4,273 bases of DNA from Qubevirus faecium, in the sequence record FJ539134.1, one strand, 5' to 3'. Both the position numbers and the translations under genes were made by a program. Within the stretch, counting starts at the first letter, position 1. Each line of letters begins with the position of its first letter. Under the pieces are notes generated by a model. That model had not been told where the DNA came from, did not search any database, and was given only the letters and a program-made list of their open reading frames with translations. Of this stretch, positions 2,435-4,273 are shown in pieces.

Positions 2435-2454
2435 TAGCATGTCAAAGACAGCTA
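2435..2454 (+). promoter_or_regulatory. Replicase translational operator hairpin (coat-protein binding site): stem UAGC/GCUA + UGUC/GACA, bulged A, AAA loop; contains the replicase AUG
   Basis: Seen directly: 2435-2438 uagc pairs with 2451-2454 gcua; 2439 a is unpaired (bulge, first base of the AUG); 2440-2443 uguc pairs with 2447-2450 gaca; loop 2444-2446 aaa. Same architecture as the Qbeta operator (8-bp stem, bulged A, 3-nt loop) as I recall it. Confidence 0.8.
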
Positions 2455-4169
2455 GTCGCAGAAGAGAAATTACTCAGCTATTGGGTAAGGTCGACATCAA
2501 CTTCGAAGACGACATCCACATGTCTATTGCCAACGACCTCTTTGAGGCCTACGGCATCCCGAAACTTCAGAATGCTGAGGAGTGCATTAACACCGCATTC
2601 CCAAGCCTTGATCAAGGCGCAGACACATTTCGTGTCGAGTATTTGCGCGCTGAGATCTTATCGAAGTTCGACGGGCACCCTCTAGGTACTGATACCGAAA
2701 AGACAGCATGGGAGAAATTCCTGGCTGCTGAAGAGGGTTGTAGACTTACGAACGAACGACTGTCGCAGGTTAAGTACCACGATAATTCCATTTTGTCGTG
2801 GGGCGAGCGTGTAATTCATACTGCTCGCCGAAAAATACTTAAACTAATTGGCGAGTCTGTGCCGTTCGGGGATGTGGCGTTGCGCTGCCGATTTTCTGGC
2901 GGTGCAACGACCTCGGTAAACCGTTTACACGGTCATCCGTCGTGGAAGCATGCCTGTCCGCAGGATGTTACCAAACGCGCATTCAAGTACCTGCAAGCCT
3001 TTAAACGGGCGTGCGGTGACGTTGTAGATTTACGCGTCAACGAGGTGCGCACTTCAAATAAAGCAGTCACTGTTCCGAAGAATAGTAAGACTGATCGCTG
3101 TATCGCCATCGAACCCGGTTGGAATATGTTTTTCCAGCTCGGTGTAGGTGCGGTGCTACGCGATAGGTTGCGTTTATGGAAGATTGACCTTAATGATCAG
3201 TCGACCAACCAACGCCTCGCGCGGGATGGGTCTCTGCTAAATCATTTAGCTACCATAGACTTATCCGCAGCCAGTGATTCGATCAGCTTAAAGCTAGTTG
3301 AATTGCTGCTCCCTCCTGAATGGTATGACCTTCTGACAGATCTCCGATCTGATGAAGGCGTTTTACCTGATGGACGAGTTGTGACCTATGAGAAAATATC
3401 CTCCATGGGAAATGGCTACACTTTCGAGCTTGAGTCGCTTATTTTCGCGGCGCTCGCAAGAAGTGTGTGTGAGTTACTAGAAATCGACCAATCTACTGTT
3501 AGCGTGTACGGGGATGATATAATCATCGACACTCGTGCCGCAGCTCCATTAATGGATGTCTTTGAATACGTTGGGTTCACGCCTAACAAAAAGAAGACGT
3601 TCTGCGATGGACCCTTCCGCGAATCGTGCGGTAAGCACTGGTTCCAAGGGGTAGATGTAACGCCCTTTTACATACGCCGACCAATTCGTTGCCTTGCTGA
3701 TATGATACTGGTTTTAAACAGTATCTACAGGTGGGGCACTGTTGATGGTGTATGGGATCCTAGAGCACTGACCGTGTACGAAAAGTATCTCAAGTTGCTG
3801 CCAAGAAATTGGCGACGCAACCGGATACCAGACGGCTACGGAGACGGAGCTCTCGTCGGATTGGCTACGACGAACCCGTTCGTTATAGTTAAGAATTATT
3901 CAAGACTATACCCGGTATTAGTTGAAGTCCAGAGGGACGTCAAGCGTAGCGAGGTAGGCAGTTATCTATATGCCTTACTCCGCGATCGCGAGACACGTTA
4001 TAGTCCTTTCCTGCGTGACGCAGATAGGACTGGGTTTGATGAAGCGCCGCTAGCTACTAGCCTTCGTCGCAAGACAGGTCGGTACAAAGTGGCGTGGATT
4101 CAGGACAGTGCCTTCATCCGGCCCCCGTATTTCATTACGGGCATTCCCGAGGTGAAGCTTGCAAGCTAG
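2439..4169 (+). CDS. rep: RNA-dependent RNA polymerase (replicase beta subunit)
   Basis: 576-aa ORF, ATG with SD, TAG stop at 4167-4169. YGDD catalytic motif at 3507-3518 (VSVYGDDIIID). Long blocks match Qbeta replicase from memory (CRFSGGATT, NKAVTVPKNSKTDRCIAIEPGWNMFFQLG, LATIDLSAASDSISL, VTYEKISSMGNGYTFELESLIFA, FRESCGKH, GVDVTPFYIR, IPDGYGDGALVG). Confidence 0.96.
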   Translation: MSKTASRRREITQLLGKVDINFEDDIHMSIANDLFEAYGIPKLQNAEECINTAFPSLDQGADTFRVEYLRAEILSKFDGHPLGTDTEKTAWEKFLAAEEGCRLTNERLSQVKYHDNSILSWGERVIHTARRKILKLIGESVPFGDVALRCRFSGGATTSVNRLHGHPSWKHACPQDVTKRAFKYLQAFKRACGDVVDLRVNEVRTSNKAVTVPKNSKTDRCIAIEPGWNMFFQLGVGAVLRDRLRLWKIDLNDQSTNQRLARDGSLLNHLATIDLSAASDSISLKLVELLLPPEWYDLLTDLRSDEGVLPDGRVVTYEKISSMGNGYTFELESLIFAALARSVCELLEIDQSTVSVYGDDIIIDTRAAAPLMDVFEYVGFTPNKKKTFCDGPFRESCGKHWFQGVDVTPFYIRRPIRCLADMILVLNSIYRWGTVDGVWDPRALTVYEKYLKLLPRNWRRNRIPDGYGDGALVGLATTNPFVIVKNYSRLYPVLVEVQRDVKRSEVGSYLYALLRDRETRYSPFLRDADRTGFDEAPLATSLRRKTGRYKVAWIQDSAFIRPPYFITGIPEVKLAS

Positions 4170-4180
4170 ACACTAGCTTG
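4162..4180 (+). other. 3' UTR hairpin (perfect 8-bp stem, 3-nt loop) whose 5' arm contains the replicase UAG stop
   Basis: caagcuag (4162-4169) pairs perfectly with cuagcuug (4173-4180); loop aca at 4170-4172. Confidence 0.6.
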
Positions 4181-4189
4181 TGATGGGAA

Positions 4190-4208
4190 GGGCGGTCTTT
4201 GACCGCCC
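4190..4208 (+). other. 3' UTR GC-rich hairpin (perfect 8-bp stem, UUU loop)
   Basis: gggcgguc (4190-4197) pairs perfectly with gaccgccc (4201-4208); loop uuu at 4198-4200. Confidence 0.6.
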
Positions 4209-4210
4209 GA

Positions 4211-4228
4211 GAGGAGAAAGAAAGAAAA
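4211..4228 (+). other. 18-nt all-purine A-rich tract in the 3' UTR (gaggagaaagaaagaaaa); candidate host-factor (Hfq) binding region
   Basis: The uninterrupted purine run is seen directly. Hfq preference for A-rich / ARN-repeat RNA and its role as Qbeta host factor are established; binding at this exact site is inferred. Confidence 0.4.
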
Positions 4229-4239
4229 CTCCCCTCAGT

Positions 4240-4273
4240 GAGGGTGGGCTCTGCTTTGCCCACTCTCCTCCCA
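4240..4273 (+). other. 3'-terminal hairpin (stem 4240-4249 / 4258-4267, 8-nt loop UCUGCUUU) followed by the terminal ...CUCCCA
   Basis: Pairs 4249c-4258g, 4248g-4259c, 4247g-4260c, 4246g-4261c, 4245u-4262a, 4244g-4263c, 4243g-4264u (wobble), 4242g-4265c, 4241a-4266u, 4240g-4267c. The terminal CCCA matches the canonical levivirus 3' end, where the last A is added by the replicase. The 3' region closely resembles the Qbeta 3' terminus as I recall it. Confidence 0.7.

Follow-up and report, generated by a model that had tools for sequence, protein, structure and literature searches.

The window analysed here is the whole 4273-nt stretch of DNA in record FJ539134.1. According to megablast, it is a complete allolevivirus genome, Qubevirus faecium, group IV, of the SP/FI type. 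The 3' end of this genome, from the replicase stop-codon hairpin onward, is very probably the 3'-terminal domain of Qubevirus in its group IV form, a cis-acting RNA element already known to have several functions. In the architecture predicted from the sequence, the stop-codon hairpin R1 (4159–4183) lies directly against a 5-bp closing helix, in which residues 4184–4188 pair with the last five nucleotides of the genome, and a four-way junction joins this helix to a G+C-rich hairpin (4190–4208), hairpin V (4209–4236) and the terminal hairpin U1 (4240–4267). All features described here lie on the + strand. The element has already been published, and the same 3'-end sequence is already present in GenBank as that of BR8. 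The finding itself matters little, as a textbook Qβ-type element is re-identified. Its value lies in the correct annotation of the region: the 3' end is predicted to be sequestered, the purine tract near it forms the arm and the loop of a hairpin, and the terminal loop has a putative distant partner in the replicase gene.

Fold and conservation of the 3' end

The minimum free energy (MFE) of region 4150–4273 is −62.1 kcal/mol, as against −41.2 ± 3.8 kcal/mol for shuffled sequences (z = −5.5), and none of 200 shuffles folded as well. The structure is identical when the region is folded in a 300-nt context and in the MFE structure of the whole genome. In the ensemble of a 1.5-kb fold, the helix probabilities are 0.93 for R1, 0.997 for the G+C hairpin, 0.97 for V, 0.999 for U1 and 0.70 for the closing helix. 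The original prediction, made from the sequence alone, had placed three hairpins at 4162–4180, 4190–4208 and 4240–4267 and had proposed folding of 4150–4273 as a check. All three form at exactly these positions, with 8, 8 and 10 pairs, and they are also found in the full-genome MFE structure. Its overall reading, a densely structured 3' untranslated region (3' UTR) of a Qβ-like phage, holds, although the V stem, the closing helix and the pseudoknot were missed.

The comparison set consisted of 14 GenBank genomes: the window, six further members of group IV and seven of group III (Qβ, HL4-9, BZ1, VK, FrMerlot, M11 and MX1). Some of the alignments and folds were made without the truncated FI record and the duplicate 3' ends (BR8 and SP_2). 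The group IV alignment covers the 3' 124 nt and is gap-free. In this alignment, 98.4% of the pair cells are standard pairs, whereas the value is 44–53% when the partners are slid. Double-sided changes are observed at seven pairs, two each in R1 and V and three in the G+C hairpin (six across the genus). The genus-wide alignment gives 93.5% of cells paired against about 52% with slid partners, and 14 pairs with double changes; it was fitted to the model structure, and its pair counts are inflated by this. RNAalifold gives a matching consensus from the group IV alignment. A covariance model that had only group IV sequences as its input matched all the group III 3' ends from end to end, with E values from 1e-6 to 1e-8.

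Twelve complete genomes were folded from 32 nt upstream of the UGGGA strand of the closing helix, and all 12 gave a common layout of R1, closing helix, U2, V and U1. In this layout, a stop-codon hairpin of 11–12 bp is followed by the closing helix, the G+C hairpin, a hairpin with a large A- or AU-rich loop and the terminal hairpin. An extra small helix is predicted in the group III genomes only. In all known Leviviridae, a long-distance interaction links the extreme 3' end to a segment further upstream, and the resulting domain carries the hairpins U1, U2 and V (PMC3561173). At least three enclosed hairpins are expected of such a domain, and the window has them in U2, V and U1 (4190–4208, 4209–4236 and 4240–4267). 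The Qβ 3' UTR is described as very like that of SP apart from one short extra helix (PMC3561173), and the predicted folds agree with this description, the extra short helix being found in Qβ as opposed to the SP type.

Closing helix, terminal hairpins and putative long-range contacts

The closing helix is formed by UGGGA (4184–4188) and the terminal UCCCA (4269–4273), which contains the initiation site. The pairing is present in all folds; its mean pair probability of 0.70 comes from the 1.5-kb ensemble, and residues 4269–4272 are unpaired with a probability of only 0.02–0.08. As UGGGA pairs with the terminal UCCCA, the initiation site would be sequestered. In the Qβ virion model, the last six nucleotides pair with 4124–4129, the homologue of 4184–4188 of the window (PMC8880383). 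Prediction and homology to Qβ thus both point to a base-paired 3' end in the window. The original prediction had taken the terminal CCCA as the initiation site of the replicase. This is in line with Qβ, in which the replicase starts on the penultimate C of CCA and copies this base first (PMC4200798), but the CCCA is predicted to be paired with UGGGA and not free. By analogy, templating in the window is expected to begin at C4272, with A4273 left uncopied. Residues 4266–4273, downstream of the replicase gene, are the allolevivirus 3' signature UCCUCCCA (PMC6071253). Release of CCCA is predicted to cost about 5 kcal/mol, compared with 4.8–7.0 kcal/mol in Qβ. The idea that the shorter, 5-bp closing helix eases the release of the 3' end relative to Qβ was dropped, as the predicted costs show no clear difference.

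The stop-codon hairpin R1 (4159–4183) has 11 bp and the loop ACA (4170–4172). Its core, 4162–4180, consists of the eight perfect pairs of CAAGCUAG with CUAGCUUG, and the stem is extended to 11 pairs by G·U, U·G and U–A. The replicase stop codon UAG (4167–4169) occupies the final three paired positions of the 5' arm; it had been correctly placed within the first stem by the original prediction, as had the 104-nt length of the 3' UTR (4273 − 4169). The gap between R1 and the closing helix is 0 nt. The two R1 pairs with double changes in group IV are compensatory, and a stop-codon hairpin of 11–12 bp is predicted at the equivalent place in every Qubevirus genome examined. In Qβ, R1 binds an internal coat dimer, and mutants of R1 and U1 lose infectivity (PMC8880383).

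Several side observations concern R1. The 5' arm includes a perfect 10-nt palindrome, GCUUGCAAGC (4157–4166), and the stem also has AGCU and CUAG. The sequence UGCAAGC at 2992–2998 is complementary to 4157–4163, a candidate pairing of 7 bp. In the record of phage FI (EF068134, 4080–4184), AAG stands in place of the UAG seen in the R1 stem of the other group IV genomes, and R1 is maintained via different base pairs. With AAG at the usual stop site, the annotated FI replicase runs on to a UGA located in the following hairpin's loop. This record stops within the U1 loop, and its 3' end is truncated.

The G+C-rich hairpin (4190–4208) has eight perfect base pairs and the loop UUU, and it is taken as U2 by its position. 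In Qβ particles, U2 is in contact with an exposed coat dimer (PMC8880383). The terminal hairpin U1 (4240–4267) has 10 bp, including one G·U, and the 8-nt loop UCUGCUUU (4250–4257). The loop holds UGCUU at 4252–4256, a sequence conserved in the U1 loop across single-stranded RNA phages, SP included (PMC3561173). Two U1 pairs are compensatory between groups III and IV. In the Qβ virion, U1 binds the maturation protein (PMC8880383). In phage HB-P22, an A-to-U change in the U1 stem (GCCCUCUC) breaks one pair and alters the predicted fold of U1, and release of the 3' end is then predicted to cost less, 3.5 kcal/mol.

The U1 loop is a candidate strand of a long-range pseudoknot. Residues 4251–4258 (CUGCUUUG) are complementary to residues 3059–3066 (UAAAGCAG), which lie 1191 nt upstream in the replicase gene, in the codons AAU AAA GCA G. 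By this complementarity, eight pairs including one G·U could be formed. AAAGCAG is unique in the window, and it occurs at replicase offset +621 in 15 of 15 genomes. No variation is seen in the 11-mer AAUAAAGCAGU, even at its three synonymous sites, whereas the flanking synonymous sites vary. In the nested ensemble, the U1 loop is unpaired with a probability of 1.0, and 3057–3063 are mostly unpaired. In Qβ, a pseudoknot of the U1 loop with a site some 1200 nt upstream is indispensable for replication (Klovins and van Duin 1999, cited in PMC3561173 and PMC4176380), and long-distance interactions are needed for minus-strand initiation (PMC4176380). Of all the features of the terminal hairpin, the pseudoknot has the best functional documentation. 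In the Qβ strain HL4-9, the U1 loop (~4199–4206) has CUGCUUAG in place of CUGCUUUG, opposite an unaltered upstream partner. As restoring the pairing would convert the codon AAA to UAA, the terminal portion of the pseudoknot is simply lost in this strain.

A candidate long-distance helix lies next to the pseudoknot partner, one nucleotide further downstream. Its 5' strand CACUGUUC (3068–3075) can pair with the 3' strand GGACAGUG (4103–4110). At the homologous group III sites, UACUGUAC and GUGCAGUA, two pairs are altered on both sides. This helix is probably the interaction over about 1000 nt of Klovins (1998), cited in PMC4176380. Two other pairings were rejected. In Qβ, 2888–2896 and 4112–4120 give a perfect 9-bp match, which first resembled the published long-distance interaction. 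It was set aside because it competes with the covarying R1 and has no counterpart in group IV, and it could be a chance match or an alternative conformer. In the window, a helix of 2865–2875 with 4141–4151 (11 bp, three of them G·U) was spotted by eye, and its ensemble probability is 0.

Besides the inflated genus-wide counts, several points weigh against the assignment of the region to the Qubevirus domain or narrow its basis. The closing helix is invariant in 13 genomes of the genus, and covariation therefore neither supports nor contradicts it. Most of U1 is likewise invariant, and covariation cannot confirm it. Thermodynamic folding gives a probability of 0 for the helix of 3068–3075 with 4103–4110, and the energy model, being restricted to nested structures, cannot evaluate the long-range pseudoknot. 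The sample comprises only about seven independent lineages, and scans of public viral and metagenome sequences added none: in IMG/VR, the motif from U1 to the 3' end matched SP itself only, and in the JGI metagenomes the same motif gave seven matches, all of them by chance and unrelated. The literature search yielded no experiments on this strain, and the function is carried over from Qβ. The need for the domain in minus-strand initiation and in the incorporation of the maturation protein has been shown for Qβ only, and by analogy the same would be expected here.

Hairpin V and the question of Hfq

The original prediction had described an 18-nt purine tract at 4211–4228, a plausible docking site for the host factor Hfq. 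The tract is real and A-rich, but it spans 20 nt, 4209–4228. It is the longest purine run of the genome, a length reached in four of 2000 shuffles, and the most A-rich 18-mer of the genome lies in it. The notion of an open single strand did not survive the folding. The first eight nucleotides of the run form the 5' arm of hairpin V (4209–4236): GAG.GGAG (4209–4216) pairs with CUCC.CUC (4229–4236) with a probability of 0.97, in two stems of 4209–4211 with 4234–4236 and 4213–4216 with 4229–4232. The remaining 12 nucleotides, AAAGAAAGAAAA (4217–4228), form the loop, which is unpaired with a probability of 1.0, and only these are exposed. The loop is large and A-rich, as described for hairpin V of MS2, Qβ, SP and AP205 (PMC3561173). 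Within group IV, the pairs 4210/4235 and 4211/4234 change from A–U and G–C to G–C and A–U in NL95, HB-P24 and HB-P22. The loop is invariant in group IV apart from one base in SP. Group III retains the V stem with a completely different sequence.

A long-range partner for the A-rich V loop was sought, and only 6- to 7-mers at chance level were found. The 9-mer AGAGGAGAA occurs twice in the genome, at 40–48 (the Shine-Dalgarno region of the maturation gene) and at 4210–4218 (the 5' arm of V and the start of its loop); chance alone should give a sequence of 4.3 kb about 35 repeated 9-mer pairs, and the match is absent from Qβ.

Two other accounts of the structure can be set against hairpin V and the domain that contains it. 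The purine tract might be an unstructured linker, or GAGGAG (4211–4216) might pair with CUCCUC (4265–4270) as an alternative conformer in place of V. The two hexamers are indeed perfectly complementary. Their pairing, however, has an ensemble probability of 0.000, compared with 0.97 for the V stems, and it would disrupt U1, which has a probability of 0.999. The double compensatory changes at two pairs of the V stem, and the persistence of the stem in group III with a wholly different sequence, also speak against this account, which we consider very improbable. Still harder to credit is the view that the hairpins are a by-product of base composition, or a signal of the DNA type, for example an intrinsic terminator, a Shine-Dalgarno sequence (AGGAG, 4212–4216) or a tRNA-like end. 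AGGAG is a Shine-Dalgarno core, the G+C hairpin looks superficially like a terminator and the genome terminates in CCA, but the molecule is the genome of an RNA phage, and the z value of the fold together with the covariation argues against such an origin. A promoter and terminator scan gave no site on the + strand, and the hairpin 4190–4208 is followed by GAGAGGAG and not by a U run. No start codon lies at the proper distance from AGGAG, and there is no open reading frame (ORF). ARAGORN found no tRNA in the sequence, and an Rfam search of the whole window gave no match at E ≤ 1. Rfam appears to hold no model for the Qubevirus 3'-terminal domain.

With hairpin V in place, the exposed part of the tract is the loop. 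By analogy with Qβ, the V loop may be an Hfq contact, and we put the chance of this slightly short of even. In 1976, Senear and Steitz are said to have found that the host factor protects a Qβ fragment at about −63 to −38, counted from the 3' end. In the alignment, this fragment corresponds to the V loop and its 3' arm; the tract in the window lies at −65 to −46. Schuppli and colleagues reportedly found in 1997 that Qβ adapted to hfq-null cells had mutations unpairing the 3' CCC. The predicted burial of the 3' end in the window fits this account. Hfq is required for copying of the Qβ (+)-strand and helps the replicase to reach the 3' end (PMC8956599, PMC6071253).

The triplet content of the loop, among other points, weighs against a dedicated Hfq site. 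Four A-R-N triplets are present at 4212–4223, but 4213–4216 are paired. The exposed loop holds only three consecutive A-R-N triplets (4219–4227) and two A-A-N triplets per frame, as a G at every fourth position breaks the 3-nt register. The loop resembles Hfq distal-face sites, such as that of the rpoS leader, in being an A-rich, purine-only single strand adjoining a helix to be remodelled, and differs from them in this broken register. A purine- or A-rich V loop is also predicted in the local MFE folds of MS2 and AP205. Su and colleagues are said to have found in 1997 that MS2 replicates normally in hfq-null cells. The case for Hfq docking is weakened by these A-rich loops in MS2 and AP205 together with the reported independence of MS2 from Hfq. 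In addition, the distal-face motif in Escherichia coli has been redefined as (A-A-N)n (PMC3936774). A literature search found no data on the Hfq dependence of group IV phages.

Other runs in the genome have the triplets in larger number. Two further A-R-N runs have four triplets each: AAGAAUAGUAAG at 3078–3089 lies a short way 3' of both the pseudoknot partner and the candidate long-distance helix, and AACAAAAAGAAG at 3585–3596 is the only (A-A-N)4 run of the genome. By sequence, either of them could be an internal Hfq site.

The A-rich V loop might instead serve mainly in packaging, in the virion or in the architecture of the domain, as a contact of the maturation protein A2 or of the coat or as a spacer of the junction, with Hfq acting elsewhere (the 3' tail, 3078–3089 or 3585–3596). 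We regard this as a possibility to be taken seriously, though not as the probable one. The purine- or A-rich loops reproduced in the 3'-end folds of MS2 and AP205, and the normal replication of MS2 that is said to occur in hfq-null cells, are in keeping with it. In the survey that describes the A-rich V loop of MS2, Qβ, SP and AP205, there is also evidence from MS2 for binding of the maturation protein (PMC3561173), and in the Qβ virion the junction of the 3' UTR is wholly seated on the maturation protein and coat dimers (PMC8880383). By sequence, the V loop would be a weak (A-A-N)n ligand, and the sole (A-A-N)4 run lies at 3585–3596. Against this, the classical protection mapping in Qβ is reported to have put a host-factor site on the V hairpin. 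The Qβ virion model names contacts of U1 with the maturation protein and of U2 and R1 with the coat, and V is unmentioned there (PMC8880383). The two roles of the V loop, in Hfq binding and in packaging, are mutually compatible. The pure-purine V loop of group IV would offer a clean system for asking whether it is an Hfq contact, a packaging contact or both.

On the reading of the region as a Qβ-type domain, the following sequence of events may be proposed. The pseudoknot and the long-distance helix would bring the 3' domain to the internal binding region of replicase and S1, by homology to Qβ. The initiating CCCA would be held base-paired, and melting would be needed before the replicase starts at the penultimate C. 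This melting may be aided by Hfq, as in Qβ, and the exposed A-rich V loop would tentatively be the likeliest hold for Hfq. In the virion, the 3' domain would serve as an adapter, binding the maturation protein via U1 and coat dimers via U2 and R1. A bolder version has the group-IV-specific pure-purine (AAAG)n loop as a dedicated landing pad from which Hfq pries the closing helix open, and has the terminating ribosome unzip R1 and the closing helix, so that the end of replicase translation is coupled to the exposure of CCCA. As the stop codon lies in R1 and R1 is stacked on the closing helix, a terminating ribosome would transiently unzip both. The support for translational coupling is entirely geometric, namely that R1 and the closing helix adjoin with a gap of 0 nt and that the stop codon falls within R1 in 12 of the 12 complete genomes folded, and we consider this version unlikely. 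For the engineering of SP-type replicons or of RNA-packaging adapters, the features of the 3' domain must be kept, including the three synonymous positions at 3059–3066.

Genome context and comparison with known systems

The gene order of the window is A2, coat/A1, replicase. The ORF of the maturation protein A2 spans 52–1404, the coat ORF extends to 1822 with the read-through A1 to 2419, and the replicase ORF spans 2439–4169. By megablast, the whole-genome identity is 95.1% to BR8 (FJ539135), about 92% to SP and about 81% to NL95, and the similarity to Qβ is only patchy. The last 174 nt, which contain the whole region discussed here, are 100% identical to BR8 and about 95% identical to SP. 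The window and BR8 differ at about 5% of positions genome-wide and at none in these 174 nt (4100–4273), and the 3' end is thus far more constrained than the coding regions.

The 3' domain of SP and Qubevirus faecium (PMC3561173) is the same element as that of the window, with the closing helix, the G+C hairpin, hairpin V with its A-rich loop and U1 with its UGCUU loop. The differences are strain-level substitutions, mostly compensatory or located in loops.

The domain of Qβ is alike in that R1 abuts the closing helix and the genome ends in UCCUCCCA. The Qβ U1 loop is UCUGCUUUG, and its complement UAAAGCAG is found at the matching replicase offset. The two domains differ in four respects. Qβ has an extra small helix, and its 3' UTR is a five-way junction in the model from cryo-electron microscopy of the virion (PMC8880383), whereas a four-way junction is predicted in the window. 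The closing helix has 6–7 bp in Qβ and 5 bp in the window. The V loop is AU-rich in Qβ (AAUAAAUU) and pure purine in the window. The R1 arm that contains the stop codon is the 3' arm in Qβ and the 5' arm in the window.

MS2 and the emesviruses share with the window a 3' end that pairs upstream, UGCUU in the U1 loop and a penultimate hairpin with a purine- or A-rich loop. Outside the U1 loop, no sequence homology to MS2 is detectable, and the MS2 domain is longer and more branched. The host-factor requirements of the replicases are also unlike (PMC8956599).

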